From a virus (taxonomy: Duplodnaviria > Caudoviricetes): DNA of 64,000 bases. The stretch lies in IMG/VR virus record IMGVR_UViG_3300016744_000001; one strand, 5' to 3'. Shown piece after piece: positions 5,046-60,265 of this stretch. How positions within the stretch are numbered: position 1 is the first letter of the stretch; every line of letters begins with the position of its first letter. The translations under genes were made by a program, and so were the position numbers. The notes under the pieces are model-generated. The model had not been told where the DNA came from and did not search any database. It saw nothing but the letters and a program-made list of their open reading frames with translations.

Positions 5046-7226
5046 ATGCTGAATACTCAACGACCGGCACCTGATCAGGTTCAATACCGACCTGACGTAA
5101 TGAAGTGCTATATAGCAAATCAGGTCGAACATCTTCGGTTGGTTTTTCCAGATCTCTCGGTGGAAGAACTAACTGAGATTGTCCGAGAAGATGCGAAGAA
5201 AAATTTTAAGCGTCCAGAATGTCAGGTTATCGTTTATCCTGAACCAGGTGAATGTGATCTGCGAACACTCGATCTGCTGAACTTCATCACTGTTCACAGA
5301 GCAGATGTGATCACACCATCTGGGACAATGTTCAAATCTGATGCGAAAAACCTGCCACCTTCGATTGCGTATTGCAATGCTTGCAAGCAGGCACGCAGTC
5401 ATTTCAAGAAACTCATGTTTGCTTGTATGGAAAAAGGTGATAAAGATGGTGAAGCCCGAAATGACAAGCGACAAGCGTTAAAGAAGATCAAGAACAACTC
5501 GATCATTGGCGCCCATGGCTTCAAAGGCAGCGCGTTCTACGATAAGGAATGCTTCAGTGGGATCACCTCGTTAGGTCGAAACGGTGTGATCATGTCCTAC
5601 GGGATAACCGAGCAATGTTTGGTGAATAATTTTTATTGGTCTGATGCTGAAAAAGTCATCAACCATGTCATCACTGTTGCTGCAGCTGCAAACATGGAAC
5701 TGGTCGAAGAGATCTGCAATAAGTACAATCTGTATATTCCAGATGCAGAAACTACTGCAGGTCGTTTACTTGAATCAGCAAAGTACTACCTATCGAAGGA
5801 TGTACGAGTGGCATTACACGCTAAGCTGGTCAAGATGTTTGATGCTCTGCCTTGGCAGAGAAGAACATACGTGTTCTATCGCCGGAGCATGATCAACCTT
5901 TTTGTGTACAACAAAGAGCTGTTTAAGGCCAAGATTGCTGGATTGTTTGACTTGGATGTCAAGTTGAAGGCAAACCCTGATTTTGAAGAACGGTTGACGA
6001 ATGCTAATCCTAAGGATGCACTTAAGCTTCCTGAAGATGTGCAGATGATGCTTTCCGTTATCTACAACAACGTGCTTAATTACAATCCAGTCAACAAAGA
6101 ACTTGTTGAAAAGCAACCCGAGATTGCAAAACACTTTGGGTTGATTGGACAGGAAGCAGTGAAATACCTCGAATCATTCGAGGAAGTGTATGCACCATTT
6201 CTGTTCTCTGGGGAAGCACTTGCACGGATTCCAGAGAACAAGTACATCATTCGTAAAGCTGTTGCTGTGTCAGATACAGACTCAGTGATTTTTACGATGA
6301 AATCGACCGTCTCGTGGTTCAAAGATGGAAACCTGAAGGTTGACCAAGCTTCGTTGAACATGTCCGCATACACCGTTTATTTGCTTTCTCGAGTGTTGAA
6401 TACCGCAAACCGGGATTTGGCTATTTCAAAGGGTGTGGTGACAGAAGCGAACGTTAGCTTGATTAACCTCAAGAGTGAGTTCTTGTATCCAGTATTTGTT
6501 AAGACTGACCTTGGCAAGCACTACTTTGCAAAGTACATTGCGAAAGAAGGACGTCAGCTTCCTGAACCGAAGCTTGACGTTAAGGGTGTGGAATTCCAGT
6601 CATCAACATTACCGACAGTGACCAAAGAGTTCACGAACAGTATCCTTAACAAGATCATCGATGACGTGATTGAGTATGGCGATCTGTACGAGAATGACTT
6701 GATTCGGACATGTCTGGATTACGAGACAAAGATCTTGAGTTCACTGCGAGCAGGTGACCTCGGTTACTACGCAAACGCTTCAGTGAAAGACAAGTCAGGA
6801 TACAAACAACCGGAAAGAAGTATCTACTTCAACTACGAGTTCTGGCAAGAAGTCTTTGCAGATCGTTACGGGGAAATCCATATTCCCGGAAAGTACTGCA
6901 TGGTTCCTTTCAGAGACAAAGTGATGCGCAGTGAGCAATACCTGTCATGGATGAAGAATGGCTTCCCGGATGTCCATGAACGGTACATGCGGTTCTTGAA
7001 ACGAGTTGACCCCAAGAAGAAGTTGACTCGAATCGTGTTGCCGGCTACCTGTATCAAATTGCCGGAGATCTTTGTTCCAGCAATTGATACCCGAGCAATC
7101 ATTTATAAAAACATGGCACCGACTCAGTTGGCTTTGAAACAGATTGGGATCAATCTGGGCAAAGCGAAACAGATGCCACTGTTCTTAGATGTGTACACTG
7201 ACACATTGATGAACAATGTCTGCTAA
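5046..7226 (+). CDS. Divergent family-B DNA polymerase, polymerase domain (phiKZ gp50-like)
   Basis: Motif B-like KKIKNNSIIG, ITSLGR, motif C SDTDS, K-H-Y and DVKGVE thumb motifs; no obvious N-terminal proofreading exonuclease. Confidence 0.9.
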   Translation: MLNTQRPAPDQVQYRPDVMKCYIANQVEHLRLVFPDLSVEELTEIVREDAKKNFKRPECQVIVYPEPGECDLRTLDLLNFITVHRADVITPSGTMFKSDAKNLPPSIAYCNACKQARSHFKKLMFACMEKGDKDGEARNDKRQALKKIKNNSIIGAHGFKGSAFYDKECFSGITSLGRNGVIMSYGITEQCLVNNFYWSDAEKVINHVITVAAAANMELVEEICNKYNLYIPDAETTAGRLLESAKYYLSKDVRVALHAKLVKMFDALPWQRRTYVFYRRSMINLFVYNKELFKAKIAGLFDLDVKLKANPDFEERLTNANPKDALKLPEDVQMMLSVIYNNVLNYNPVNKELVEKQPEIAKHFGLIGQEAVKYLESFEEVYAPFLFSGEALARIPENKYIIRKAVAVSDTDSVIFTMKSTVSWFKDGNLKVDQASLNMSAYTVYLLSRVLNTANRDLAISKGVVTEANVSLINLKSEFLYPVFVKTDLGKHYFAKYIAKEGRQLPEPKLDVKGVEFQSSTLPTVTKEFTNSILNKIIDDVIEYGDLYENDLIRTCLDYETKILSSLRAGDLGYYANASVKDKSGYKQPERSIYFNYEFWQEVFADRYGEIHIPGKYCMVPFRDKVMRSEQYLSWMKNGFPDVHERYMRFLKRVDPKKKLTRIVLPATCIKLPEIFVPAIDTRAIIYKNMAPTQLALKQIGINLGKAKQMPLFLDVYTDTLMNNVC

Positions 7227-11189: not shown

Positions 11190-12920
11190 GTGAAACAAAC
11201 CGCTGAAATGGCGTGGTATATGGCAGCTAGCAGACGACGGTCGTTGTTGAAACGAGCGTCATTGTTACTGTTGCATGCTTGCCCAAAAATGCCAATCCTT
11301 AAGTTGCTCTCTACCTTGCACTACGACATTACTGGCAAGGTCATTTTTCCAAGACCTAACGTCAAGCGATTAGCAATTGGTGAAATCGCTGATTTTCCAG
11401 AGATCACCCAGTTATCTGAGGAACACATTACCAAAATCCAGACTGAATACGTCATCACGGTACTCAATGATCAATACATCGCACTGGATTGGGTAGATGA
11501 TCATCTCAGATTGATTGGCTTGTCAGTTGATCTGACGGTTCCTCCGTTCTATCGGTACGATTTTCTGATCGTGTATGATGGAGACATTGAAAACTTTCCT
11601 GGTCAAAAGTTTTCGACTACCTATGGACGATACGTCGCGAACTATTACCAGATTGCTGCTAACTTGATCAATGATTCAAAGAACGTTGATCCACTACTGA
11701 AGTTCCGAAATGAAACATGGAACATCGACAAGTTTGAAGGTGGTTTGACCGAGTTACTGATGGAACACAAATTGGACGTTGGACCAGTCAACAAGTACGT
11801 TGACTTTGCTTACTTTCTTTCCTCGATTGGTGAGATCTGTGGAGCAACATTAACCAAGAAAGCTGTCATCCCAGACCCGGCAATTGCAAAACGTCGAGAT
11901 GAATTGTATAAGAAATACGAAGGCCAGTTGTCTGACCCTCGTATTTCGACAATCATTGAAAACGAATTGATCGCCATGGATAAGGAATACCTTAAAGGTG
12001 ATCCATCTATGGCATTTCTTGGTGACTCGGGTAAGAAGTTCAACGTTCATAGAAAACGTCAGTACATTGCTGTCGGTTTGCTGGAAGAGTTTAGTAAATC
12101 GAAAGGCAAATATGAATTCATCAAAGAGTCATTGTCAGATGGTTGGAACAAAAATTCATTCAAGGCTATCTGCGATGAAATCCGTCGTGGTTCGTTTGAC
12201 CGTGGTGTCGAAACTCAAGTTGCTGGTTTGGATACCAAGTGGATGGTTGCAGTGTTTCAAAACTGCAAAATCATGGGTCATGATTGTGGGTCCAAGCAAA
12301 CACTAAGTGTAACACCAACTGCGGTAACCATCAATTCGTACATTGGTGCTTACATGAAGTCTGATCAAAAGCTTCCAGTGAAGATGATCAACTTCCCCAA
12401 GGAAGAATGGGATCGAATCCAAAATCAAAAAATTATCTACACCACCAGAATCTCTGATGATAAGGATAAATACAAGATTGGGGATATCGTACTGGCACCT
12501 TGGGGCAAACATTACAATGTTATTGACCGCAGTGTATTTGATGATGTCGAACGGCATCCCTTCAGGAGGGACTTGACTCAAGCACAAGCTGATTTGCTTG
12601 CTGGCAAACAGTTTGCTGTCTTGAAACTGGTTCTGACTGATGTGATTCCAGGGTATCAGCCAATCACCAGAGAAAACTGCAAATCATTTGTGGGTCAGAC
12701 GATTCAGATTCGTAGCATGCAGTATTGCAAACAGCCTTATGGCTTTTGTGAAGTGTGTGCGGGCAAGTCGTTTACGGATCTGGACTTTAAGAACATTGGG
12801 ACAATCCCCATTGATATTGGCGCGGTGTTTCTGGCACTAAGCATGAAGTCCATGCATGGTACAAAGATCGACAGCTTCCGGATAGAAACTCCAGAAGCGC
12901 TTGATCGCTATTTCATATAG
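11190..12920 (+). CDS. Virion RNA polymerase beta-prime subunit, C-terminal part (phiKZ gp80-like)
   Basis: Bridge-helix-like RRGSFDRGVETQVAG, Zn ligands DCGS...RSMQYC...CEVCAG, trigger-loop-like LSMKSMHG. Confidence 0.85.
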   Translation: MKQTAEMAWYMAASRRRSLLKRASLLLLHACPKMPILKLLSTLHYDITGKVIFPRPNVKRLAIGEIADFPEITQLSEEHITKIQTEYVITVLNDQYIALDWVDDHLRLIGLSVDLTVPPFYRYDFLIVYDGDIENFPGQKFSTTYGRYVANYYQIAANLINDSKNVDPLLKFRNETWNIDKFEGGLTELLMEHKLDVGPVNKYVDFAYFLSSIGEICGATLTKKAVIPDPAIAKRRDELYKKYEGQLSDPRISTIIENELIAMDKEYLKGDPSMAFLGDSGKKFNVHRKRQYIAVGLLEEFSKSKGKYEFIKESLSDGWNKNSFKAICDEIRRGSFDRGVETQVAGLDTKWMVAVFQNCKIMGHDCGSKQTLSVTPTAVTINSYIGAYMKSDQKLPVKMINFPKEEWDRIQNQKIIYTTRISDDKDKYKIGDIVLAPWGKHYNVIDRSVFDDVERHPFRRDLTQAQADLLAGKQFAVLKLVLTDVIPGYQPITRENCKSFVGQTIQIRSMQYCKQPYGFCEVCAGKSFTDLDFKNIGTIPIDIGAVFLALSMKSMHGTKIDSFRIETPEALDRYFI

Positions 12921-21512: not shown

Positions 21513-23192
21513 ATGGCAGATTTGTGGGACAAAGTCATTGATGGGGTAAACGAAGAGTTCCCCAACTTTGATCAGTATTCATTAAAAGGGCATCGTCAAG
21601 GTGAAATCAGAAAGATCCCACAGTACTTTGACATGGTCTTTGCCGAAGCAGCTCGCCGTTACGGATCAAATCCAGATGGCACCCCAGTGGTCAAGTACAT
21701 TGGCCATCGGTTCCTTACACCTGAAGAATGCATCAAGATGGATTGTGACAATCCTAAGTATTCTGGGTGTGTCGATATCCTTGTCACAGAGGCAAATCTC
21801 TGTGAATTCATCTTCGAACATAATGGAACAAGATTTGCAACCCAAATCTATATTCCTTATCTTGTTGATGATGCCATCATCATCAACGGATCAAAGTACT
21901 ATGTCATGTTCGCTCTTACGGACAAGGTGTTCTATCACATCGTCAAAGAGCAAGGTATCGGGATCAAGATCCTTTGCGGCCATCTGCGATTCTGCAGAGG
22001 ACATCGGCACAGCTTCTACTCTACGATCGGTAATATTTACGGCGACCACATCATCACAACGAAGATCCACTTGCGGACGTATCAACAAACTGCCGAGGAT
22101 CAGAAGACAGCGTTGCTGTTGTACCCGTTGGTCAAATTTGGATTGAGGGAAACCTTACTCCGGTATAAAATCTCCCCTGATCATGTCACTGTCACTACGG
22201 TGCATGATGAACAAGATGAGGAATTCGAATACTTCTGTATCCGGCCGGATAACGAAAACGGTAACGGCCTTTACATGAAAGTACACAAAAGCATCTTGCG
22301 TACTCAGTTCGACACAAAGGATCGCCTGAAAATGCAGGTGATCGCTGCGCTACACTACATCTTGCAGTACTTCAATCTCTGCAAGAACACGATGTATGTT
22401 AACAATGTGCAGGTTGTTGACGCATTGCTGAATGACCCGCTGTTCATGGTCTACAAGGTCATCCTGGGTAAAGCTACCTTTGGGATGAATTACGAAAACG
22501 AGATCCAAGTTGCGGGCCACATCAAAGATCATCTCCAGTCACTGGAGATCTACATGGACCCCGAAACCAAAAGGAAACTTGCTGGGATCGGAGTCAGATG
22601 TAACGATGTCTACGACCTGATTCAATATGTCAGTGAAAACATCGACAAGTATGTCGCCAACTATTTCCCATCCAACATCTACAACAAGCAGCTCAATGTG
22701 CTCGATCTGTTGCTGGGTGGTGCAGTGAGTACGTTGTTCACAAGGATCTATCGACAGACGAATAACCGAAAAGGTGATCGGCCGTTTACCCTGAACGACG
22801 TGATGTCTTCATTCAGAATCCCCAATCGGGTCCTGATGAAGATCTATAACTGCAATGGGCTGATTGCCAGTAATCCATCAGTCTACAATGACAATGGATT
22901 GATTGCGGCATTTGGCCGACGCAAACGTGCAACATTCACCACAAAGATTGGCGGTGGCAAGGCCTCATCCAAGAAAAGTGGTGGGGACCAGAACCTGTTA
23001 CATGATCCAGCTCACAGAACGCATTCCTCCATGTTCGTTGTTGAATCTGGTAGCCGTGTGCAAAACACCGATCCAACAATGAGTGGTACGATCAATCCGT
23101 GGTGTCAGTTTGACGAAAACGGAAGTGTGGTCGTCCCTGATTGGTTGATGGAACACGTCAAGAGCTATGACTCCTATGTTCAGAGCCGATAA
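21513..23192 (+). CDS. Non-virion RNA polymerase beta subunit, N-terminal part (phiKZ gp123-like)
   Basis: IYIPYL...IINGSKYYV (beta FIING motif); C-terminal H.S...VES...P..SG.INP. Confidence 0.8.
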   Translation: MADLWDKVIDGVNEEFPNFDQYSLKGHRQGEIRKIPQYFDMVFAEAARRYGSNPDGTPVVKYIGHRFLTPEECIKMDCDNPKYSGCVDILVTEANLCEFIFEHNGTRFATQIYIPYLVDDAIIINGSKYYVMFALTDKVFYHIVKEQGIGIKILCGHLRFCRGHRHSFYSTIGNIYGDHIITTKIHLRTYQQTAEDQKTALLLYPLVKFGLRETLLRYKISPDHVTVTTVHDEQDEEFEYFCIRPDNENGNGLYMKVHKSILRTQFDTKDRLKMQVIAALHYILQYFNLCKNTMYVNNVQVVDALLNDPLFMVYKVILGKATFGMNYENEIQVAGHIKDHLQSLEIYMDPETKRKLAGIGVRCNDVYDLIQYVSENIDKYVANYFPSNIYNKQLNVLDLLLGGAVSTLFTRIYRQTNNRKGDRPFTLNDVMSSFRIPNRVLMKIYNCNGLIASNPSVYNDNGLIAAFGRRKRATFTTKIGGGKASSKKSGGDQNLLHDPAHRTHSSMFVVESGSRVQNTDPTMSGTINPWCQFDENGSVVVPDWLMEHVKSYDSYVQSR

Positions 23193-26709: not shown

Positions 26710-26739
26710 AGCAGCAGCACGGATGTCCGTGCTGCTGCT
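26710..26739. terminator. 14-bp-arm inverted repeat between convergent genes
   Basis: AGCAGCAGCACGGA-tg-TCCGTGCTGCTGCT. Confidence 0.75.
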
Positions 26740-26765: not shown

Positions 26766-29700
26766 TTAGCTGCACTTGCTGTAGCCACAAGAATGGCAAC
26801 AAGCACAACCACCTTCATGGCGGAGAGCCTTTTCACCACACTGTGGGCAGATGCCACATTGGATCGAAGACACAGGCAGGTCATCATCAGTGGTGTCATC
26901 ACCCCAAGCACTGGAGGTCTCAGTCTGACCTTCCTGAGCGTAGGTTTCAAGCACCCGAGCGATGACTGACATCATGTCGTTCACAGTAAAGGCAGCTTTG
27001 CGCAACTGGCTGATGATGATACAAACATCCACACCAGCACGAAGGCCAACACTAATCATGCGCATCAAGGCAGTCCACAATGACAGCTTTTCCTGATAGT
27101 CAGCATGATCAAAGATGTCGTTCGCAGTGCTCACCTTCCTCGGGAGGGAGGAGATGAAGATTTCCATGGGACGATTCTTTTCGTTCATGGAAACGACGAT
27201 GTACATCTTGCAACCGTTCCAGTAGACTTCATGCCGTTCAGCAAGAGTCTTCTTGGGCATCTCAATGATTTCACCCCACTTCAGAGCAAGCGTCATTTCC
27301 TTTTCCTCTTTCTGTTTGGGGGCAGAGTGAGCTGCCGGTTTCTGAGTGGGGGCGGCAGGAGCTTCTTCTGCCTTCTTGTCTGCTTCTTTGGTGACCGTCA
27401 GTTCGTCAGGAGAAGGCAGTTCACTGGTAATTTCCTGTATCGACAGGGAAAGACCATGTTCACCCGGAGTGGAGATTTCAGCAAGGAAATGCCGGTCTTC
27501 TTCAGGGATGTTCACATAGTAACTGTTTTTCTGACCAACCATTTTAAGATCATGACTGATAGAACAAATCGTCGCAGTATCTTCCTGTTTAATGCCAGTA
27601 AACAGGTGATACGCTTTACCACCACGGACGCACATGACTGGATTCTTCTTCACCAATGCCAAGAAAGGAGTATGTGATTCCCGGAACTCACCCGTGGATT
27701 CAAAAAGGATCTCTTCATCGTAGTTGACAAAGAGACTTCCAGAAAACAACTTGTCCAGCTTCTTGCTGGGGATCTTCTGTGTTTCCTTTTGTTCCCCAGC
27801 ATTGAGTGTGGCAATGGCTTCAGCCAACAGCGTGATCCGGTGTTCCCGAACATGGAGGTTCAAGACAATCACAATGTTACGATTGTAACACGGCAATGTG
27901 AACTGGTAGTTGCCTTTGTGATTCTTCAATTCGGGGTTGAACAGCACACACGAATATGTGTGGAAGTCCTTGATTTCACTGAAGAGGTTGGTTCCGTTGT
28001 TCAGTGCCGGTTTGGTTGCAACAAAACGTAAGAAGCTCTGCGCGAGCTGGTTGTCACCCACAAAATCAGCGGATTCTACGGTTACCCACTGACCATGTTC
28101 AAAGACCATGTGGTCAGAGAACGGAAGTGCGAATGAGGATTCGTCTACTGGGATGTCGACGTTGGTCGAGTCTTCAATCTTGCTGATTTCAAAGATCACA
28201 CCAGTATCAGTGACATTCAGTTTGAAGTTCAACAAGCCATGCTTTGAATCGGTGATCTTAAAACCAAAAGATCCCTGACCAAAAGATTTGAGCTTAGCAT
28301 CAACGTGCATTTCGTACATGCCATTAAAGTAGCTTTCATCACACCACAGGATCGTCTTGTGTTCAAGTGTAGGACCGAACTCAGCAAATGTCAAGAACAC
28401 CTGGTTATTTTCCCAGTGTGGTCCTTTGGGATCAAGGTAGATCTTTTCCCCGTACTTCAGTACCGTTCCAGACCAAGGGAGGAGACCATAGTCTTCAGGA
28501 CCAGTGGTCATTTCCTCAGTCGTGCTCTGGCTACCAGTGCTCTGAAGATCAAGAGTACTTGCACTTTCTTCAACCACGTTTTGATGATCATCGGTGGGCT
28601 CCTCAGCAGTTTCGATCGCAGACAGCACGCCGGTCAAGCTACCATCACGGTAGATGGTAATGCCCTTGAGCTCTTGTTCATGAGCGTACAGGTAGATGTT
28701 CATGATGTCTTCAGGCTTGCAGTCAGTAGGCAGGTTCACAGTCGAAGAGATCGAACTGTCACAGTACTTCTGGCAAGCCTGTTGGATGGCAATGCGATCT
28801 TCAAAGCCCAGCTCGTGAGCTTCAACCACATTGTACATCTCCTTCACAAACTTCTTGGTCAGTTTGCGACGATCTACTTTACCAGCTTTGATCACTTCCA
28901 CCAAGTGACGAGCAACCGGAGCGTGGCATGCAAGGTATTCCTGCTTGTCACCAACACGGGTGCGGCGGGTGTAGAACATGGCGAACACCGGTTCAATACC
29001 AGACGAACAGTTGTTCGCAAGAATCGACAGTGAACCGGTCGGACCAACCGTATTGAAGGCAACGTTGCGCAGACCACCAACTTCACGGATCTCGTGATAC
29101 ATCGGGTGGGTTTCACCATACAGGTGCTGCAGATACGGCGAGGCGATCAGTTCTTCCACGGCATTCGGGTGCTGCTTGTAGTAGTCACACACCGTAAACT
29201 GTTTGGCCAACTCCAATGAAGTGCCGATCTCGATCATGGCTTTGCTGCGCATGATCCCTTCAATGAATTCGATTGTGTTGGCATGGTTGCCGTACTTGAG
29301 ACCGAGCATGGACAGTGTATCAGCAAGACCAGTGAACTCAATACCGATGCGCTTGGCATAGTGTTCAAGGTCACGCTGCTGCTGCAGAGGGTGCATTGTT
29401 TCGTTTAGGTCACTGAAGATGTTCATGACCACAGTGGCAGCATTGCAGTTTTGCATCCAAAGGTCGTCGTTGAACGTGGCGTCCTTCGTCCAAGGATTGT
29501 CAACATACTTGGAGATGACGTGAGCACCCAACAGACAGCTACCACCAGCATACGACGGGATCTCGGAACACGGATTGGTGCAGACCAGACGAAGCTTGGG
29601 ATCGTTCTGGTTGATGGTGGTCCAGCCAGTGACCTGATCCCAGAAAAGAGCACCTGGATCACCACGGAGCCAAGCAGCCGTGCAAGCATCCATGAAGATC

Positions 29701-30812
29701 TGTTTCGCCGAAGGGATCTTGGCAAGCACACGACAGGGATTAGCACCGTTGTGATGCTGTTGGATTAGCTGATGCAGTTGAGCCACGTTCTGGATCAGAA
29801 TGAACTGATCACCAAACTGGAGATGGTGACCGACGAAGTAAAATTCGTTGTCACGTGTGACGTAGGCTTCGTAGGTGTCGTACTTCTTCAGCTTGCCACC
29901 AATGGCTTCCCAGTGAGCGTAGTCACCATCCCACTCACGGTTGTAAAGCTCTTTGTCCGCTTCAATGTCAGGGAAGATACATTCCCAAGGCTGATCGTTC
30001 TTCACAGCTTCCATGAATTCATCAGTGAACTTCACGGAGATGTTTGCGCCATCAATCGCAGGAAGTTTGCCGCTGTGACATTCTTCCGTGATCCGGCTGA
30101 TGAAGTGGTTGAGCTGGTCTTTGTTGTCCGGTTTGGATTCACTGACCAAAGTCTGCAACGCCGTTACCAGAGGGAGGATCTTCTTCTGGGAAGAGTTCTT
30201 GTTCAGAAAATCGTTCTGGAACACACGAGCCGGATCGGCCTTACACCAGATGTACCGCATGATGTCAGGATGACGAACATCCATGGTCAACATCATCGCG
30301 CCCCGGCGACCATTCTGACCAATGGTTTCCGTCACAGAAGAGAACAATGGCATGAACGACACAGCACCAGAGGAGGTCTTTGCCGCGTTATGAACAGTGG
30401 TGCCCTGCGGACGCAGAACCGTGATGTCAACACCACAACCACCACGGTAGCTATACGTGCGAGCCATCTCACCAAGAATTTTGAAGATGGATTCAATGCT
30501 GTCGTTTTCCATCTTCATGACGTAGCAATTCGACAGGGATGATTTCTTGTTGGCATTGGTGGTCAACCCAGCAAGAATTGATCCAGCTGGCAAAAAGTAA
30601 CCACCCCGCAGCATCGTCACGACGTCGTCAAGCTGATCCGTTTTATAGCCCAGGGCTTTACCTTTGGTCATAACGATCGTGCAGATCCGTTCGATGACAT
30701 CGGAGAAAGTTTGTTCATCACCCTGAACATACTTTTCCTTTACCATGTTGTTCACCATGGCATTGGTTTCATCGATTGCTGCTGTCAGCCCATCCAAAGT
30801 GATACTGGCCAT
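26766..30812 (-). CDS. nrdJ: Class II (adenosylcobalamin-dependent) ribonucleotide reductase with C-terminal TSCPD/Zn-ribbon domain and a large internal insertion
   Basis: LSNCY, RRGA, ANISV, TNPCSE, SCLLG, GPTGSLSI...SSGIEP, ISSTVNLP, KGITIYRDG; C-terminal CPQCG...EGGC..CHSCGYSKC; AAGGAG RBS before ATG 30812; no nrdB nearby. Confidence 0.88.
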   Translation of the reverse strand: MASITLDGLTAAIDETNAMVNNMVKEKYVQGDEQTFSDVIERICTIVMTKGKALGYKTDQLDDVVTMLRGGYFLPAGSILAGLTTNANKKSSLSNCYVMKMENDSIESIFKILGEMARTYSYRGGCGVDITVLRPQGTTVHNAAKTSSGAVSFMPLFSSVTETIGQNGRRGAMMLTMDVRHPDIMRYIWCKADPARVFQNDFLNKNSSQKKILPLVTALQTLVSESKPDNKDQLNHFISRITEECHSGKLPAIDGANISVKFTDEFMEAVKNDQPWECIFPDIEADKELYNREWDGDYAHWEAIGGKLKKYDTYEAYVTRDNEFYFVGHHLQFGDQFILIQNVAQLHQLIQQHHNGANPCRVLAKIPSAKQIFMDACTAAWLRGDPGALFWDQVTGWTTINQNDPKLRLVCTNPCSEIPSYAGGSCLLGAHVISKYVDNPWTKDATFNDDLWMQNCNAATVVMNIFSDLNETMHPLQQQRDLEHYAKRIGIEFTGLADTLSMLGLKYGNHANTIEFIEGIMRSKAMIEIGTSLELAKQFTVCDYYKQHPNAVEELIASPYLQHLYGETHPMYHEIREVGGLRNVAFNTVGPTGSLSILANNCSSGIEPVFAMFYTRRTRVGDKQEYLACHAPVARHLVEVIKAGKVDRRKLTKKFVKEMYNVVEAHELGFEDRIAIQQACQKYCDSSISSTVNLPTDCKPEDIMNIYLYAHEQELKGITIYRDGSLTGVLSAIETAEEPTDDHQNVVEESASTLDLQSTGSQSTTEEMTTGPEDYGLLPWSGTVLKYGEKIYLDPKGPHWENNQVFLTFAEFGPTLEHKTILWCDESYFNGMYEMHVDAKLKSFGQGSFGFKITDSKHGLLNFKLNVTDTGVIFEISKIEDSTNVDIPVDESSFALPFSDHMVFEHGQWVTVESADFVGDNQLAQSFLRFVATKPALNNGTNLFSEIKDFHTYSCVLFNPELKNHKGNYQFTLPCYNRNIVIVLNLHVREHRITLLAEAIATLNAGEQKETQKIPSKKLDKLFSGSLFVNYDEEILFESTGEFRESHTPFLALVKKNPVMCVRGGKAYHLFTGIKQEDTATICSISHDLKMVGQKNSYYVNIPEEDRHFLAEISTPGEHGLSLSIQEITSELPSPDELTVTKEADKKAEEAPAAPTQKPAAHSAPKQKEEKEMTLALKWGEIIEMPKKTLAERHEVYWNGCKMYIVVSMNEKNRPMEIFISSLPRKVSTANDIFDHADYQEKLSLWTALMRMISVGLRAGVDVCIIISQLRKAAFTVNDMMSVIARVLETYAQEGQTETSSAWGDDTTDDDLPVSSIQCGICPQCGEKALRHEGGCACCHSCGYSKCS

Positions 30813-30933
30813 AAATGCTCCTTTAAACCCAATATTTTTTAAGGAAATCAAACTTTTGTAAACATTTGATATGTGGTCACAGTTAGACTACACATGCCGT
30901 GTGGAACAGTTTAAAGATTGTTGTTTAACATAT

Positions 30934-30967: not shown

Positions 30968-31483
30968 CTAAAGACTACCTGAAAAGTTTCTGAAATCACG
31001 GATTTCAAGTGTCCCGTTGTTTTTAAGCGCCACATCAAACAGACGAGATGAGACGCGATTGATGGCGTAAACTTCAGAATGCTGATTGGGGATATCTGGT
31101 TGACCAATGATTTCCCAACCTTCCAGTCGGCAAAGCTCAAGGAAATCATCTTTGAGTTCACTACTGAGTGGCTCAAGAAACACGATCTCTTTGTCTTGAG
31201 CGATGGCGTACATGATTTCATCCCAAGCACCCATGCCGATGTACCCATCTTTGTTCAATACAAAGATCTTATCCGACTGCCTGATCTTCTTAAGATAGAC
31301 ACGGTCCAGCAAACGCTTGAGCGGACTGTTCATGTCAAGATCTTCCTGATGACCAAAGAGACCAACAGTGTGGACGATATTGCCAGCGATCGTCAGATCA
31401 CGCATCGCTTTTGCCCAGACTTCAGGAAAACGAGTTGAACCAACAAGAGTGATCGTTTTGATATCGTTATCTGAGATAGTCAT
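30968..31483 (-). CDS. Nucleoside 2-deoxyribosyltransferase-like (NDT/DUF4406-type) protein, putative nucleotide N-glycosidase
   Basis: ITLVGSTRF...KIRQSDKIFVLNKDGYIG.GAWDEIMYA...KEIVFLE matches the NDT-fold signature with its catalytic Glu. Confidence 0.7.
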   Translation of the reverse strand: MTISDNDIKTITLVGSTRFPEVWAKAMRDLTIAGNIVHTVGLFGHQEDLDMNSPLKRLLDRVYLKKIRQSDKIFVLNKDGYIGMGAWDEIMYAIAQDKEIVFLEPLSSELKDDFLELCRLEGWEIIGQPDIPNQHSEVYAINRVSSRLFDVALKNNGTLEIRDFRNFSGSL

Positions 31484-31760
31484 ACATGCTCCCTCCGATG
31501 ATCTTTCCATTGCGATCAAAAACGATCACTGCCTGACCAGGCTTTCGATATCTGGTAACATCAGCAATTTGGGCAACCTTGGCTTCATCCTGATAAGTGA
31601 CCATGTGTTCTTTGGCGTGTTTCTGCAGTTCAGTCATGATTGACTTACCCGCTTCTGGATCAGCCAAGTACTTGTCCAACTTAGGACGATTCTGTTCAAG
31701 TCGATCTCGTTCCGCCCAGAGTCTTTCAATATCTTCAAAAGTGTGAACACTTGTGCTCAT
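31467..31760 (-). CDS. Small hypothetical protein
   Basis: Tightly packed between purZ and the NDT-like gene. Confidence 0.65.
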   Translation of the reverse strand: MSTSVHTFEDIERLWAERDRLEQNRPKLDKYLADPEAGKSIMTELQKHAKEHMVTYQDEAKVAQIADVTRYRKPGQAVIVFDRNGKIIGGSMYDYLR

Positions 31761-31763
31761 GAC

Positions 31764-32855
31764 TCACCTGTATTTGGCGATGTAGTTTTGTAGTGTGAGT
31801 GGGTCCATGTGACTGATTTGCGGCGCATACGGACCAAAACCAACAAGCATCATCGCCTTTTGTTTCCGGTTAAGAAACTTAAAAGTTTTCAGATCTTCCT
31901 CACTCAAGTAGTTAATGAAGTTCAGAAACACATGAGTGGGTTTGATATACTTGAGTGACCGCTCGTATTGTTCTTTTGAAAACGTAAATACCCGACGAAC
32001 ACGTTTGGTCACGGTAGTCAGTTCTGGTGTCTGCTGCAGTTCTTCCCAAGTGAGTTCATGACTATCAGGATAGACTGGACCGCTATCACCAATCTCATTA
32101 CCTTCATCATCCTTGGGATTACCGACACGGATTGGAAATGTTCGGACAGTCATCATGACATTCCCAAGATAACTTGGATGTAATCCGAGATCACTCAGGA
32201 CAGCAGATGGTGTCACATCAATGCTCGTGCAATGTGGATAGGAGTACCCATGATTAAGAGACAAATCAAAACCCTGTCCTGTCTCTACTAACACATTGAG
32301 ATCCTGATCCAGCAAGTATTGCACGTATTCAGTGTCAGTCTTGATGAACGGCTGAAGTTCTTTTGTTCCTTGAGCAAGTGGATTGCTTCGCATGATCTTA
32401 CTGGCTCTTGCCGCACCACTGCCAGATTGCGTGCTAGCGATGCGTACAACGCCGTTTTGATCCTGTTCCGTCTCCTTATCCATCTTTGTCACTACGGCCG
32501 CTCTAGGGTGTATTATGAGCCGTTCTGGGCCTATGTCAAACTCACGCATCTCCTTGAAAAGGATGTCCAGATCAATGACACTCCCAGCACTGAGATAGAT
32601 GGTGGATCGTTCTTGAATGATCCCGGCTACTGGGAGCATCTTGGTCACGTATTTTTTATCCTGGTAATAAAAAGTGTGACCAGCATTTGGTGACAATCTT
32701 CCCACAGCGAGATGAACAGTATTGTCAAGAGCTAACCGGTTTGCAATTAACCCTTTCCCAGTAGAACCAAACTGTCCATCAATCACCATGTTGCATTTGC
32801 CAGAGATAACAAAGTCATCCAAGGGACTTGATTCCCCGTGAGAAAGATTTGGCAT
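31764..32855 (-). CDS. purZ: PurZ-type adenylosuccinate synthetase homolog (N6-succino-2-amino-dAMP synthase)
   Basis: DGQFGSTGKG (Ser where PurA has the catalytic Asp of GDEGKG), PNAGHT, IASTQSG, QGFDLS, YPHCTS, RTFPIRVGN, SGP, TTVTKRVRRV, and FLNFINY in place of PurA TKLD. Confidence 0.85.
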   Translation of the reverse strand: MPNLSHGESSPLDDFVISGKCNMVIDGQFGSTGKGLIANRLALDNTVHLAVGRLSPNAGHTFYYQDKKYVTKMLPVAGIIQERSTIYLSAGSVIDLDILFKEMREFDIGPERLIIHPRAAVVTKMDKETEQDQNGVVRIASTQSGSGAARASKIMRSNPLAQGTKELQPFIKTDTEYVQYLLDQDLNVLVETGQGFDLSLNHGYSYPHCTSIDVTPSAVLSDLGLHPSYLGNVMMTVRTFPIRVGNPKDDEGNEIGDSGPVYPDSHELTWEELQQTPELTTVTKRVRRVFTFSKEQYERSLKYIKPTHVFLNFINYLSEEDLKTFKFLNRKQKAMMLVGFGPYAPQISHMDPLTLQNYIAKYR

Positions 32856-32860
32856 GGTAG

Positions 32861-33262
32861 TTAATCCGGCAGAATGAAACAACGGTTGATCACACCACCT
32901 TGATAGTATCCAAACTCACCATCTGAGGTTCGTCCAGAGATCGGGGTTTTAGCGTCAATTGCCCTGAAGAGTTCTTTAATAGCTTCAGGAGAAAGATACT
33001 TAAACACAACCTCAATTGACTGTGATTGATTGTTGGTGCCTTTTGCCCGAACAGTGTACAATTTGGACGAATCCAATCTGCCAAGGATGTTGTTCCTGGC
33101 GGACATGGCCGCTCTTTCAAATTGTGTTTTATCCGTCCAGTATCGATCTTTTTCCTGGGGATTTAAGATTTCGATCTGGATAGGCGAATGATCTTCAGCA
33201 ACGACTTCTTCTATTCGCTGCTGAATTTTTCTGAAATTACGACGGATAACAGGCTTTTTCAT
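32861..33262 (-). CDS. Hypothetical protein
   Basis: AGGA RBS; directly upstream of purZ. Confidence 0.65.
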   Translation of the reverse strand: MKKPVIRRNFRKIQQRIEEVVAEDHSPIQIEILNPQEKDRYWTDKTQFERAAMSARNNILGRLDSSKLYTVRAKGTNNQSQSIEVVFKYLSPEAIKELFRAIDAKTPISGRTSDGEFGYYQGGVINRCFILPD

Positions 33263-33509: not shown

Positions 33510-33833
33510 TTACATTTCAAGAACACGATATCCAGCACACCCACCACCATGACAAGAACAAATTCGTAGTTGTCCAGTTTTATCGTGTTTGGTCAATACC
33601 ATGGTTTTGTAGATGCCCGTAATCAGAACAGTGTCATCCACTTCCCATGTAAAATCAGCCTCGACAAACTCAAGTTTATCAATCCAATCTCCACCACAAG
33701 CGCAGAATGCCTTTGATGGAGTAACGTCTTTACAGTGGAAGTTGAAGCGAGCTAATGCTTTACAAAGAGCATCTTCAGAATAGTACACTCGTTGTGATTG
33801 TGGTGTTTTACCCATCTGGGTCCTCCAATCCAA
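33510..33833 (-). CDS. Hypothetical protein
   Basis: Within the operon; Cys-containing C-terminus; start may be the MGKTP ATG. Confidence 0.55.
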   Translation of the reverse strand: MDWRTQMGKTPQSQRVYYSEDALCKALARFNFHCKDVTPSKAFCACGGDWIDKLEFVEADFTWEVDDTVLITGIYKTMVLTKHDKTGQLRICSCHGGGCAGYRVLEM

Positions 33834-34086
33834 ATTCTTGGATCATTCGTACTAGTACGTCACCATGACAGATCTTTGGTTTACAATAACAACCAAGCCG
33901 TTTACCAACAAGAGGAATCAGATCCTCTTTGGTGAAAGTATCCCGAGCATAGTCTTCGTACATGTCGATAACATAAGCTCTGTCATTTTCGCACTTCATC
34001 GGGAAAGGATTTCCCCATTTACTACCTCTGCCAATATACACGTCATACGCAGATTTGCGTAAGTTAACTACCGTAGTCTTTGACAT
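33808..34086 (-). CDS. DUF4326-family protein
   Basis: YDVYIGRGSKWGNPF...GKRLGCYCKPKICHGDVL signature. Confidence 0.85.
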   Translation of the reverse strand: MSKTTVVNLRKSAYDVYIGRGSKWGNPFPMKCENDRAYVIDMYEDYARDTFTKEDLIPLVGKRLGCYCKPKICHGDVLVRMIQEFGLEDPDG

Positions 34087-34128: not shown

Positions 34129-34158
34129 ATCGTGAGACTCAATCAAGAGTCCCACGAT
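34129..34158 (-). terminator. Hairpin after the GNAT gene
   Basis: ATCGTGAGACTC-aatcaa-GAGTCCCACGAT; the single mismatch becomes a G-U pair in minus-strand RNA. Confidence 0.55.
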
Positions 34159-45354: not shown

Positions 45355-46308
45355 TTAGAACGTGCTTGTGGAATCAGAAGTGATACCAAAGTCGTTAGTT
45401 GCTTCCTGGACAAGACCATTATTCGTGGCTTCATCCACCCAGCCCTTGGCGCCGTAATCGATGATGTTCGAGCTGATGCCGTTATAGGTCAGCGCGTAAT
45501 CAAGGTTCGGCTTGTGAGCATTGATTGAGTTAAGCACCAGACGACCGAGTTCACGAGTGTTCTCGTTGTGGGTGATCACACCCTTGTACGTCACAGTACG
45601 CTTGGCAAGTTCGGTCGCACCGATGGTACGCTTCATGCCAAGGTTACCTGTTTCGGTAGGCACGATATTCGTGATGACAGCAGCTTCGACCAGACGATTG
45701 CTCAGACCGGTCGGGTCAGGCTGGATCACGAGCCAAGAAGAAGTGAAGGTCGACCACACCCATTGTTCCATTGCATCACCGTACAGCGCTGAGAGCAGCG
45801 AAGCACAAGTGTCAGGATGATTGATGTGTTTCAACCACAGATAGTTCAGGTTCCAGAACAGGTTGCCTGTGATATCGTCGACCGTGACCGACGGGTTCAC
45901 AGGGTTACGCTTGGTCTGCAGAGGCATCGAAGCAGACTGACCGTCATGGCCGATCTGGGTGTCATCGAATTCCTCGGTGTAACCGATATCGATGCCGTCG
46001 ATGGACTTTGCATGCAGTTCGATCATCGCCTTGTAGGTCTGTTGGACCTTCGGGAAACGATCCCACATTCGTGGCTGTTGCAGCACGAAGACGTGAGCGC
46101 AGTTCAGTGCCAGAGGTGTCGCACCATCCATCTGGGTGATACGAGGACCAAAACCGAGCTGACCACCTTTCTGAATGTTACCAACCGGGACAAACCGAGG
46201 GTTGCCGAATTGGCCAACGTTGTTAAACAGAAGGGAATCAACACCGTTGTTATCTGTGGCGGTCGACTGGCCATTGCTAATGGAATAGTTGTCAAACTGA
46301 GTTGCCAT
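45355..46308 (-). CDS. Tail tube protein (phiKZ gp30-like)
   Basis: Immediately downstream of the sheath; ELHAKSIDG, IQPDPT motifs; 317 aa. Confidence 0.75.
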   Translation of the reverse strand: MATQFDNYSISNGQSTATDNNGVDSLLFNNVGQFGNPRFVPVGNIQKGGQLGFGPRITQMDGATPLALNCAHVFVLQQPRMWDRFPKVQQTYKAMIELHAKSIDGIDIGYTEEFDDTQIGHDGQSASMPLQTKRNPVNPSVTVDDITGNLFWNLNYLWLKHINHPDTCASLLSALYGDAMEQWVWSTFTSSWLVIQPDPTGLSNRLVEAAVITNIVPTETGNLGMKRTIGATELAKRTVTYKGVITHNENTRELGRLVLNSINAHKPNLDYALTYNGISSNIIDYGAKGWVDEATNNGLVQEATNDFGITSDSTSTF

Positions 46309-46314
46309 GATTCA

Positions 46315-48351
46315 TTACCCCGCAGTCGACGTAGAAGTGGTCGTGGTTTCGGAACGGCCCCTTGCCACGATGGTGTAGTTCCATGTACGCTTGGGATAAT
46401 CGCCTTCGAGTCCGATCTCGATCGAGACGGTGTCGTGGTTGGATTGATCTTCCGCTGACAGGTACACACGAGAAGTCACAGTGTACAGTGAGCCAAAGGC
46501 CTTGTAACCGTAACTGTTGATTTCCTTTTGGACCTTGTCCGCCAACGCCAAGAAGGGCATCTTGCGGCTGACGTTTTCGGTCCAGACAAAGTCGGCGATG
46601 TACTTCAGGTAGATACAAGCATCCGTGAATTCATCGTCCGACAGCAGAGACGTGGTGTCCTTGTAGATCGAACGGATCGACGGCATGAACTTGGAATTCA
46701 TGGTCTTGTACTGCATGTAGTTTGCAGCGCCGTCCCACAGCAGTTGCTTCTGCGTCTGGCTGTAAGGAATGAAGTTGACCTCACGATAGATGTCAACGAT
46801 GTTCTGCGGGCTAGCCGCCCAACTACCCTTAATGTAGGTAGCATTGTGGAATGTCGAACGACGTTCCGCAGCCCAGAAGGTCATCGGGATGATGGTCTTC
46901 ACGCTGGTGTCATTGACATAACCAGCCTGAGCAAAGATCGTGGCACGAAGAGCATCCGTACCGTAGAGCTCTGATTCAGGAGTGATCGCACAGCGAGCAC
47001 GGATAGCCGCTGCCACTGAGACAGCTTCGTCCATGTTGTACAGACCACGGTTGCAGTCCTGCGCGGCCATGACGATCTTGCAGTACCCCTGCACACCCAT
47101 GAAGTCAGCCATCGCAAACTTGGTCTGCAGACTGTAGCCAGGGTCATAGATGTGGGTCAGAGGATACCGGAAGCGGTCGCCGAGTTCAGGGTACTTGCGC
47201 AGTGACAAGATCTGACGGATACCGTCTTCGAAGGCTTCATCAGAGAGGTCACCGTCGTCACCACCACTGAGGTAGATGAGTGACAGGTTGGACAGGCTGA
47301 TGTGGTTCGGGTCAGACTCATCCAGAATGGCATGGTAGTAAGGATTACCGTCCATGTTTTTCATGGAAGCAATGTTCACCATCCAACCGGTGGTCAGATT
47401 GGCGTCATTGGTTTCGTATGACCGAATCAGGTTGCCGATGGTTTCGATGTTTTCACTGTAGAAGTGAACATCGAACGGCAGGAGGTACTCTTCAGTGACC
47501 TCGTTGTAGAAGAGACGCAGCAGCGTGTCTTCAGCAGAGATACGACGGTTGGTGTACGGGTCAAGCTGGTTGGGACGCATGACCATCTGGTTCAGGCGAG
47601 CTTCATACTTGTCCACGATTTCCGTAGCAGTGCTGCTGTTGTAGGGCTGTTCCATAGGAACGAATGACCACAACAGTGACTGGGTGGCTTCTACCAGATC
47701 ACCGGTCTGCTTGTTCAGATCGATGTACAGTTTCATGCCGGCACGGTTGCCCATGTCGCAAGGGTCTTTGTAGACCACACCAGCGATGGGGTAGATCTTG
47801 GTTTGGACATCACCATTGGTGACTGTCTTCACGGGGATCTTGTCGTAGCCGGTGAGCAGTTCGTCAGCAGTCATCTTGCGAACAAGATACTTGACGGAGA
47901 CACCTTTCTCTTTGATCACCTGACCAGCGTTGTCCGTCAGAGGAATGAGTTCCCCGGACAGCTCGTCATAAACGTAGCGACCTTCGTCGTCACGACGGTA
48001 TTGGATGATGGGCACGTCTGTCTTGACATGCGCTTCCACCACAGCCGTCGCCTTCTGAGCATTCGGTGGAATCACACGCATGACGAAGCAGGACTGATGG
48101 TTGAGGATGGCTTGCGTCAGATAGAACTGCTCGCCACGCCAGTATTTCTCAAACTGGTCAAAAGACTGGCCGCCGTATTTGGCAACTACTTCTTGACCAT
48201 TGCCCCAGAATGGTTTGTCATCGCCCTTCGCTGCACGCAAAAAGACCAGAGGCTTGTGCAAAGGCAGTTCAAGGTTTCTGACGCGTTGCCCAGCAGATTC
48301 GTCTTTGATATTGACTGTATCATGCGGATGGGTATAGGTTACGAGAGGCAT
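46315..48351 (-). CDS. Contractile tail sheath protein (phiKZ gp29-like)
   Basis: PLHKPL...A.KG, YLSGGDDG, YP...YDPGYSL.TK, PESELYGT...R motifs; 678 aa. Confidence 0.85.
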   Translation of the reverse strand: MPLVTYTHPHDTVNIKDESAGQRVRNLELPLHKPLVFLRAAKGDDKPFWGNGQEVVAKYGGQSFDQFEKYWRGEQFYLTQAILNHQSCFVMRVIPPNAQKATAVVEAHVKTDVPIIQYRRDDEGRYVYDELSGELIPLTDNAGQVIKEKGVSVKYLVRKMTADELLTGYDKIPVKTVTNGDVQTKIYPIAGVVYKDPCDMGNRAGMKLYIDLNKQTGDLVEATQSLLWSFVPMEQPYNSSTATEIVDKYEARLNQMVMRPNQLDPYTNRRISAEDTLLRLFYNEVTEEYLLPFDVHFYSENIETIGNLIRSYETNDANLTTGWMVNIASMKNMDGNPYYHAILDESDPNHISLSNLSLIYLSGGDDGDLSDEAFEDGIRQILSLRKYPELGDRFRYPLTHIYDPGYSLQTKFAMADFMGVQGYCKIVMAAQDCNRGLYNMDEAVSVAAAIRARCAITPESELYGTDALRATIFAQAGYVNDTSVKTIIPMTFWAAERRSTFHNATYIKGSWAASPQNIVDIYREVNFIPYSQTQKQLLWDGAANYMQYKTMNSKFMPSIRSIYKDTTSLLSDDEFTDACIYLKYIADFVWTENVSRKMPFLALADKVQKEINSYGYKAFGSLYTVTSRVYLSAEDQSNHDTVSIEIGLEGDYPKRTWNYTIVARGRSETTTTSTSTAG

Positions 48352-59712: not shown

Positions 59713-59746
59713 ATAAAGGGGGTTGAAATACCCCCTTTATTTTTTT
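59713..59746 (+). terminator. Classical intrinsic terminator (hairpin plus T-tract)
   Basis: ATAAAGGGGG-ttgaaata-CCCCCTTTAT followed by TTTTTT. Confidence 0.55.
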
Positions 59747-59755
59747 GGAGTAGAC

Positions 59756-60265
59756 ATGTGGTATCCATCAAACACGATTGCTGGTTTCTTTGGTCCATAC
59801 AGATTCTTATCAAACTTTTATGCGGCACCACAATACACCGATGGTGTTTGGTGGCCAACAAACGAACATTACTTTCAGTTCAGGAAAGCAACAACTGATC
59901 TGGAATATTGGAAAGCGGAGATCCTGAAGAAAGAAAACGCCTCATGGGCGAAACACATTGGTTGTTACAAGATACCAATTCCAAGTAATTGGGCAGACAT
60001 CAAAGACGACTGTATGATTGAAGGATTGTACCGTAAGTTTAAAATCCCACGACTTCGGCAACTTTTGATTGATACTGCCCCACTTATTCTTATTGAAGAA
60101 AACAATTGGAATGATACCTATTGGGGCATGTGTCGTGGAAAAGGGCTTAATCGATTAGGTGAACTCTTGATGGAAGTCAGAGAAAATATACTCATGCAAG
60201 GAACCCACGATGAAGAGCACGAGGAAGCATCCAAGTATCACGATTTTTCCGCTGATGGATTTTGA
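59756..60265 (+). CDS. NADAR (YbiA-like) family N-glycosidase / ADP-ribosylhydrolase
   Basis: FLSNFY, WPTNEHYFQ..K, KF, L.E....D.YWG, G.NRLG..LM.VR. Confidence 0.9.
   Translation: MWYPSNTIAGFFGPYRFLSNFYAAPQYTDGVWWPTNEHYFQFRKATTDLEYWKAEILKKENASWAKHIGCYKIPIPSNWADIKDDCMIEGLYRKFKIPRLRQLLIDTAPLILIEENNWNDTYWGMCRGKGLNRLGELLMEVRENILMQGTHDEEHEEASKYHDFSADGF

Follow-up and report, generated by a model that had tools for sequence, protein, structure and literature searches.

The bacteriophages known to replace adenine with the DNA base 2-aminoadenine (Z) are small sipho- or podoviruses, whose Z incorporation is tied to a family-A DpoZ or to a DatZ-assisted PrimPol. The enzyme that starts Z synthesis, PurZ, has been solved for vibriophage phiVC8 (PDB 6FM1/6FKO) and cyanophage S-2L (PDB 7ODX), of which the genomes are 40–45 kb in size. 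A second type, PurZ0, is represented by Gordonia phage Archimedes (PDB 7VF6) and Arthrobacter phage Wayne, and is accompanied by DutZ and by DmtZ, an NDT-like enzyme used for pool control instead of DatZ. The closest deposited phage homologue of the protein studied here is PurZ of Ochrobactrum phage vB_OspP_OH, a 41-kb podovirus with PolA, in which a MazG-like gene and a 5'-nucleotidase are located next to purZ. Among deposited phages, PurZ is confined to genomes of 83 kb or less: none of 50,697 deposited phage genomes above 83 kb, phiKZ-like ones included, has a PurZ. Here we describe a PurZ-type gene, strongly conserved in syntenic relatives, on a 64,000-nucleotide stretch of DNA (hereafter, the window; IMG/VR record IMGVR_UViG_3300016744_000001) from a phiKZ-like jumbo phage known only from metagenomes. 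The window is part of a contig of 273,278 bp (ENA ERZ27250306, k133_69751), in which it occupies positions 69,691–133,690. The presence of Z in the DNA of this phage is inferred from the sequence.

The sequence-only reading of the window had proposed a PurZ with four substituted motifs in a phiKZ-type jumbo phage. The open reading frame was confirmed, with an ATG start and an alternative in-frame TTG at 32882, and all four motifs were present: GSTGKG (residues 30–35), FPIRVGN (240–246), TTVTKRVRRV (280–289) and FLNFINY (310–316). The coordinates of purZ and of the other features are summarized in Table 1.

Table 1. Features of the window discussed in the text
Position	Strand	Length	Feature
5046..7226	+		Divergent family-B DNA polymerase (PF20286, phrog_2927); the only DNA polymerase seen in the window
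11190..12920	+		phiKZ-type split RNA polymerase beta-like subunit
21513..23192	+		Second phiKZ-type RNA polymerase beta-like subunit (phrog_2943)
23231-24940			ORF tested as chimallin; no PHROG, tblastn or Atlas signal
25073-26698			ORF tested as chimallin; no PHROG, tblastn or Atlas signal
26710..26739	-		Terminator-like hairpin (13 pairs) after the RNR gene
26766..30851	-	1361 aa	Class II-like ribonucleotide reductase (Ribonuc_red_lgC + TSCPD), downstream of the cluster; large extra segment compared with the 963-aa orthologue
30968..31483	-	171 aa	Predicted NDT/DNPH1-fold protein (P0270); candidate dAMP/dNMP N-glycosidase or transferase
31467..31760	-	97 aa	ORF between purZ and the NDT-like gene; function unknown, not MazG-like
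31764..32855	-	363 aa	purZ, PurZ-type succinoaminodeoxyadenylate synthase (P0001; activity inferred)
32861..33262	-	133 aa	ORF directly upstream of purZ (stop 5 nt before the purZ ATG); conserved in L184 (45%); no family
33510..33833	-	107 aa	Cys-rich ORF; conserved in L183 and L184 (45-59%); no family
33808..34086	-		DUF4326 protein, first gene of the conserved block; 82-84% identical in relatives
34129..34158	-		Terminator-like hairpin upstream of the DUF4326-purZ block; possible boundary of the transcription unit
45355..46308	-		Tail tube (Phage_TTP_14)
46315..48351	-		Contractile tail sheath (phrog_3242)

To examine the identity of the protein, we compared it with sequence profiles, solved structures and a predicted structure. 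The similarity was far beyond chance, with E-values of 2e-29 for Pfam Adenylsucc_synt (PF00709), 8e-64 for PHROG_1211, 8e-52 for phiVC8 PurZ (6FM1) and 1e-47 for S-2L PurZ (7ODX). In every comparison PurZ scored above PurA and PurZ0: the NCBIfam PurZ model gave 257 bits, against 195 for archaeal PurA and 121 for TIGR purA, and a phmmer search of PDB sequences gave 180 bits for phiVC8 PurZ and 166 for S-2L PurZ, against 126 for Pyrococcus horikoshii PurA and 105 for PurZ0. The AF2 model (pLDDT 87) had 7ODX as its best PDB match by Foldseek (TM 0.82/0.85), followed by 6FKO, 5K7X and 7VF6. The score of 257 bits is, however, below the curated cut-off of the PurZ model (NF038379, 300 bits). The RefSeq-annotated PurZ of phage OH, which is 40.7% identical to the window protein over 91%, scored 241 and is also below it, while S-2L and phiVC8 scored 350 and 397, respectively, and the cut-off therefore excludes a whole PurZ subclade.

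Next, we mapped the residues published as discriminating PurZ (PMC8342488, PMC12884076, bioRxiv 10.1101/2025.10.22.683976) onto the window protein. The diagnostic residues were all of the PurZ type: F29, S31, T32, P241, R243-V244 followed by an insertion, Y262, W270, T280-T283, T291, N312-F313-x-N315-Y316 and G341-P342. S31, in the P-loop GSTGKG, corresponds to Asp13 of PurA and meets the criterion of PMC12884076; PurA has GDEGKG and PurZ0 has GSEAKG at this site. All but one of 260 metagenomic relatives keep Ser at this position, the exception being a row with a gap there. PurZ0, which keeps the GTP-type S/T-M-x-D motif, and PurA have Asp at the position of N315, where the window protein has the N-F-x-N-Y adenine pocket. 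The window protein is only 37–40% identical to phiVC8 and S-2L PurZ, but shares with them the P-loop, the dGMP-pocket residues, the TTVT loop, the R-V plus insertion near C2' and the adenine pocket N-F-x-N/Q-Y. The 13-aa insertion after R243-V244 (NPKDDEGNEIGDS) is longer than theirs. One position suggests some reservation: R285 matches Arg303 of PurA, where phiVC8 has Lys and S-2L has Leu, and deoxy-specificity is thus not certain.

Maximum-likelihood trees under LG+G4 and LG+C20 placed the window clade inside the PurZ crown, in the same half as OH PurZ, with SH-aLRT values of 82–93 along the path and with PurZ0 outside as sister (99–100). This placement remains tentative, since no short archaeal PurA (P. 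horikoshii type) was included and an AU test could not reject placing the window clade basal, next to PurA (delta lnL 23.8, p 0.19). Another AU test, with known PurZ and PurZ0 constrained as one clade, rejected the constraint, but is uninformative for the window because the constraint also expelled close metagenomic relatives of known PurZ. The dN/dS of purZ against two syntenic relatives was about 0.06 at dS of 1.4 or more, indicating purifying selection, and purZ (82–88% amino acid identity) is the best-conserved gene of its block.

The phiKZ-like context proposed by the sequence-only reading was also supported. Besides the contig size, the window contained the divergent polymerase (divDNApol, 4.6e-102), gp28/gp29-like virion proteins (phiKZ_gp29PR, 1.8e-13, and PhiKZ_VTX), and tail sheath and tube genes, and the two RNA polymerase beta-like genes hit only phiKZ-like phages of 200–305 kb. 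Of the two multisubunit RNA polymerases claimed in that reading, only two subunit genes were seen in the window. The polymerase has only about 25% identity to any deposited member of the Chimalliviridae/phiKZ-like jumbo phages. Neither chimallin nor PhuZ was recognized among the window ORFs, which cover about a quarter of the genome.

In this lineage, purZ is located in a conserved block consisting of DUF4326, three small ORFs, purZ, a small ORF and the NDT/DNPH1-fold protein P0270, next to the class II-like RNR, and the synteny of the cluster is kept in the relatives L183 and L184. By Pfam and PHROG searches, no DatZ (HD/YfbR-like), MazZ (MazG/DUF550), dUTPase (DutZ-like), PolA (DpoZ) or PrimPol was found in the 63 ORFs of the window or in about 14 kb of flanks, a search that leaves out about 195 kb of the genome. 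The 97-aa ORF after purZ sits where mazZ sits in S-2L, but it has no MazG acidic motif and no family hit, and in L183 its position but not its sequence is kept; hence it was rejected as MazZ.

P0270 had no Pfam hit (PF05014) even at E 1 and no PDB sequence hit, but its predicted structure showed the flavodoxin-like NDT fold, with Z-scores of 8.2–10.0 to NDT/DNPH1/MilB over 95–125 residues and a Foldseek E-value of 7e-4; nearly all of the 50 top-ranked entries belong to this superfamily. The protein has a G-S-T-R loop after strand 1 and an Asp-Glu pair (D88-E89), invariant in 16 homologues, at the start of the helix after strand 4, of which the Glu is inferred to be the nucleophile. It differs from DNPH1/Rcl and nucleoside 2'-deoxyribosyltransferases by an extra C-terminal beta-rich segment of about 50 aa. 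Alignment of P0270 with Wayne DmtZ-DutZ by hhalign gave only a marginal 42-column match (E 0.054), which does not establish homology. An NDT-like homologue was also present on two other large purZ contigs. Published work links NDT-like enzymes to dZ pathways, and PurZ-type adenylosuccinate synthetase was the top domain associated with dZ contigs.

Taken together, the ORF is probably a functional PurZ, an ATP-dependent N6-succino-2-amino-2'-deoxyadenylate synthase that condenses dGMP with aspartate using ATP or dATP. Host adenylosuccinate lyase and nucleotide kinases would then yield dZTP, which the divergent family-B polymerase would insert opposite T, and the phage would carry DNA in which adenine is at least partly, and perhaps fully, replaced by Z. 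P0270 is proposed to remove the competing adenine deoxynucleotide, through dAMP N-glycosidase activity or deoxyribose-phosphate transfer as described for DmtZ and dZ-associated NDTs, taking over the role of DatZ/MazZ in small Z phages. The enzyme activity, the role of P0270 and the use of dZTP by the polymerase are inferred.

It is less likely, though not excluded, that PurZ is active but that the phage DNA is only marginally Z-substituted or not at all, the enzyme serving with P0270 and the RNR mainly to reshape nucleotide pools, by draining dGMP and dATP or by producing dZ nucleotides that interfere with host replication or defence. That no DatZ, MazZ or DpoZ was found in the 78 kb examined is in line with this view, as is the finding that in Escherichia coli the purZ-mazZ-datZ cluster gives only partial substitution, at a level that depends on the polymerase, helicase and SSB (PMC8342488); phiKZ-like phages may also protect their DNA in other ways, although no chimallin was identified in the window. 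On the other hand, PurZ-type enzymes track with dZ-DNA in every isolate examined so far and in the metaGPA enrichment, most polymerases do not discriminate Z from A (PMC8342488), so any dZTP made would be incorporated, and the strong conservation of the cluster argues for a core role.

A PurA-like auxiliary metabolic enzyme, converting IMP and Asp to adenylosuccinate, or an enzyme with another substrate that merely resembles PurZ, appears very unlikely. The score below the PurZ cut-off, the relatively high score on the archaeal PurA model, the AU test and the Arg at the R303 position leave room for it, but the essential Asp13 of PurA is replaced by Ser, and the S14D swap abolishes selectivity in phiVC8 PurZ. 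In addition, the GTP-specifying Asp is replaced by Asn, the adenine-stacking Phe and Tyr, the PurZ-specific T280 and the insertion are present, and true PurA-like genes in phages, such as that of the 735-kb megaphage, keep GDEGKG. The scattering of purZ relatives over unrelated phage backbones suggests frequent transfer, but a recently acquired passenger gene without function is only a remote possibility in view of the low dN/dS, the intact frame, the position conserved in three diverged relatives and a conservation higher than that of neighbouring genes.

A more far-reaching reading is possible but tentative: a lineage of phiKZ-like jumbo phages, possibly nucleus-forming, may replicate a Z genome with a divergent family-B polymerase, transcribe it with its own multisubunit RNA polymerases and control the purine deoxynucleotide pool with a new NDT/DNPH1-fold enzyme instead of DatZ/MazZ. 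This would be a third, independently assembled Z-DNA system beside PurZ/DatZ/MazZ/DpoZ-2 and PurZ0/DutZ/DmtZ/DpoZ-1. A conserved PurZ in such a phage would mean that Z-DNA can be replicated by a divergent family-B polymerase and read by the unusual phage RNA polymerases, and that base substitution could be stacked on top of the other anti-defence strategies of this lineage; it also provides candidate Z-tolerant PolB and RNA polymerase enzymes for synthetic biology.

Finally, we analysed the occurrence of PurZ on other genomes. A megablast of the locus against 50,697 phage genomes gave no match, and a scan of IMG/VR with the single protein found nothing, whereas a profile scan was successful. 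PurZ is not unique to small phages in metagenomes, since a complete 262-kb IMG/VR contig with PolA and a 263-kb contig in a MAG also carry it; a large genome alone is thus not a unique feature of this phage. PurZ diversity in metagenomes, with hundreds of 50%-identity clusters, many on large contigs and in MAGs, far exceeds what curated models capture. When six large purZ contigs (G001–G006) were tested for PF20286, none was clearly phiKZ-like and G003 gave only a weak PolB-type hit, indicating that purZ relatives sit on varied backbones.

To confirm that the minus-strand ORF identified as PurZ by the sequence-only reading is a real member of this family, we analysed its product at the levels of sequence, profile and predicted structure. 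The 363-aa product contains the four motifs on which that reading was based (GSTGKG, FPIRVGN, TTVTKRVRRV and FLNFINY), and it matched Pfam Adenylsucc_synt (2e-29) and PHROG_1211, '2-aminooxy adenylosuccinate synthetase' (8e-64). Among solved structures, it was closest to phiVC8 PurZ (6FM1/6FKO, 8e-52) and S-2L PurZ (7ODX, 1e-47), ahead of Pyrococcus horikoshii PurA (2e-35) and PurZ0 (7VF6, 4e-29). An AlphaFold2 model built on 26 homologues (pLDDT 87) gave the same order by Foldseek, with 7ODX at TM 0.82/0.85 and phiVC8 PurZ at 0.79/0.83, followed by P. horikoshii PurA and PurZ0. The observation is real and at the stated coordinates, which are listed in the table together with those of other genes noted in this study.

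Coordinates of purZ and of other genes noted in or next to the window
Feature	Position	Strand	Remarks
purZ	31764-32855	-	ATG start; an in-frame TTG lies at 32882
Class II-type ribonucleotide reductase	26766-30851	-	1361 aa
MYG1/UPF0160-family protein	43506-44585	+	full-length (Pfam 1.1e-53); lies among structural genes
NADAR, GNAT and DUF4326 genes in the window, and a Macro-domain gene just beyond its right end	59723-61079 (+), 33808-34086 (-); L181 (separate contig numbering) 16466-16948		domains that hint at ADP-ribose-related functions

Next, we examined whether the protein is PurZ rather than PurA or PurZ0. Published discriminators include the replacement of the essential Asp13 of PurA by Ser (PMC12884076). 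In S-2L, S23, T273-T276 and R240-V241 plus the A242-W250 insertion press on C2', while N305, F306 and Q308 (N297 in phiVC8) read adenine (PMC8342488). In an alignment of 271 sequences, the window protein showed F29, S31, T32, P241, R243-V244 followed by a 13-residue insertion, Y262, W270, T280-T281-V282-T283, T291, N312-F313-I314-N315-Y316 and G341-P342. In contrast, PurZ0 (Archimedes, Wayne and Hiyaa) and PurA have Asp at the N315 position and M/K/L at F313, indicating that the window enzyme is of the ATP type. One sentence in PMC12884076 assigns ATP to PurZ0 and GTP to PurZ; however, this conflicts with the sequence motifs, in which PurZ0 keeps the GTP-specifying Asp of PurA, and with the ATP/dATP-bound PurZ structures, and the order is probably inverted.

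In the NCBIfam library, the best model was PurZ (NF038379, 257 bits), compared with 195 bits for archaeal-type PurA and 121 bits for TIGR purA, although 257 bits is under the curated cut-off of 300. In a calibration run, S-2L scored 350, phiVC8 397, SH-Ab 15497 421 and PurZ0 325-367, while the RefSeq-annotated PurZ of Ochrobactrum phage OH scored only 241 and the relatives of the window protein scored 218-260. The cut-off therefore misses a whole subclade.

Phylogenetic analysis was then performed with bacterial, megaphage and archaeal long-type PurA as the outgroup. Both an LG+G4 tree (62 rows) and an LG+C20 PMSF tree (53 rows) placed PurZ0 as sister (SH-aLRT 99-100) to a large clade holding all known PurZ and the metagenomic sequences. 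The window clade was nested therein, nearer to the OH group than to the phiVC8/S-2L/SH-Ab group, with SH-aLRT of 82-93 along the path. An AU test did not reject an alternative in which the 13-row clade of the window branches next to the PurA outgroup (delta lnL 23.8, p 0.19), and, in trees lacking short archaeal PurA, the crown placement is favoured but not proven. The shared derived adenine-pocket motif argues independently for this placement.

The window belongs to ENA assembly ERZ27250306, contig k133_69751 (273,278 bp), at positions 69,691-133,690, and a near-identical 24.6-kb JGI contig also exists. Two diverged relatives, L183 (Logan ERR13656171, 29 kb) and L184 (ENA ERZ27298642, 7.6 kb), keep the same arrangement of DUF4326, small ORFs, purZ, (small ORF) and an NDT-like gene, flanked by the same phiKZ-like genes. 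The identities to the window were 74% for the RNAP beta-like gene, 81% for DUF7208 and 54-70% for RNR. The gene purZ was the best conserved of the block (82-88% aa), with a dN/dS of 0.06 at dS of 1.4 or more, indicating that it is under strong purifying selection in a lineage and is not a one-off passenger. The RNR differs in length from its syntenic orthologue on L183 (963 aa): the alignment breaks into two pieces around an extra segment of roughly 350-400 aa, which gave no intein or Hint Pfam hit.

To characterize the genome type, 63 ORFs of the window were searched against Pfam, and the divergent family-B polymerase PF20286 (4.6e-102), phiKZ_gp29PR, PhiKZ_VTX (gp28), DUF7208, DUF7193 and Phage_TTP_14 were detected. 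PHROGs gave the tail sheath, virion proteins and RNAP beta subunits. By tblastn, the polymerase and both RNAP beta-like ORFs hit only phiKZ-like jumbo phages of 200-320 kb, at about 22-30% identity. These results indicate a deeply divergent phiKZ-like phage, in agreement with the sequence-only reading, although of the two multisubunit RNAPs claimed there, two subunit genes and not two complete enzymes were confirmed in the window. Chimallin and PhuZ were not recognized in the portion examined, which leaves out three quarters of the genome.

In S-2L, phiVC8, OH, SH-Ab 15497 and PMBT28, purZ is flanked by mazZ/DUF550 and datZ and lies near a PolA. In the window, no HD/YfbR-like, MazG/DUF550, dUTPase, PolA or PrimPol domain was found in any ORF, nor was any found in about 14 kb of extra flank. 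The 97-aa ORF in the mazZ position has no MazG motif. Two genes downstream of purZ lies a 171-aa protein, P0270, with no Pfam, PHROG or PDB sequence match, the model of which (pLDDT 83) has the NDT/DNPH1 fold. Foldseek gave E 7e-4 to DNPH1, and VIA-align gave Z 8.2-10.0, with nearly all of the 50 top-ranked entries being NDT, DNPH1/Rcl or MilB-type enzymes. G15-S16-T17 after strand 1 and D88-E89 at the start of the helix after strand 4 were invariant in 16 homologues.

Homologues of P0270 were also detected on the 233-kb contig that carries the 77%-identical PurZ, and on the 263,784-bp contig CAYJGL010000001.1 of a Clostridium MAG that carries the 57%-identical PurZ. In both cases the gene is not adjacent to purZ (120 kb away, E 1e-37, on the latter contig), so the two genes co-occur beyond simple synteny. 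The Clostridium MAG contig also showed weak matches to the RNAP beta-like subunit of the window, but no PF20286 polymerase and no sheath match, and it may represent a second RNAP-encoding jumbo lineage with purZ. Two recent papers link NDT-like enzymes to Z synthesis: DmtZ of PurZ0 phages hydrolyses dAMP and transfers deoxyribose phosphate to Z (PMC12884076), and a dA-preferring NDT was found in dZ-enriched contigs. A direct profile comparison of P0270 with Wayne DmtZ was, however, only marginal (E 0.054).

Based on these observations, we propose that PurZ converts dGMP, Asp and ATP or dATP to dSMP, and that host PurB and kinases give dZTP, as inferred from the phiVC8 and S-2L work (PMC8342488). 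The predicted NDT-fold enzyme is inferred to lower the dAMP/dATP supply, the class II RNR on the same strand would supply deoxynucleotides, and the divergent PolB would incorporate dZTP, most polymerases not discriminating Z from A (PMC8342488). Taken together, this is a genuine, selected PurZ-type enzyme in a divergent phiKZ-like jumbo phage lineage, in a non-canonical gene cluster. Z-DNA, with either full or partial substitution, is plausible but unproven, substantial substitution being somewhat more likely than not.

Among 50,697 deposited phage genomes, 210 have a hit, and all PurZ/PurZ0-type hits are in genomes of 83 kb or less; the only large hit (735 kb) is a true PurA with GDEGKG. Full-text literature searches returned no report of PurZ in a jumbo phage. 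In metagenomes, the distribution is broader. A total of 577 clusters at 50% identity matched at E below 1e-30, and PurZ relatives sit on IMG/VR contigs of 111-262 kb. These include IMGVR_UViG_3300029267_004162 (262,650 bp, rated complete), with a PurZ relative (38% identity) and a family-A polymerase but no YfbR-like DatZ. None of five large IMG/VR contigs tested, nor the genome holding the Clostridium MAG contig, has PF20286 beyond a weak PolB hit. Thus, PurZ in a large phage is not unique, while PurZ in a phiKZ-like phage with a divergent PolB, and a purZ/NDT-fold cluster without DatZ/MazZ, as judged from the window and its flanks, has no described counterpart.

In addition, at least 565 contigs of GTDB species genomes carry the GS-type (PurZ-like) P-loop, including isolates such as Xanthomonas floridensis, Bradyrhizobium, Mesorhizobium, Pseudomonas putida and Microbacterium; these are presumably prophages. 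A 50%-identical PurZ-like gene annotated as archaeal adenylosuccinate synthetase ('Candidatus Pacearchaeota', GCA_023143585.1, contig JAGLHJ010000758.1) lies on a clearly phage-like contig, among genes for T4 gp13-like, RecA, clamp-loader-like and HNH proteins and an RNR with an intein, suggesting that the 'archaeal' PurZ-like sequences discussed in the literature may be mis-binned phages.
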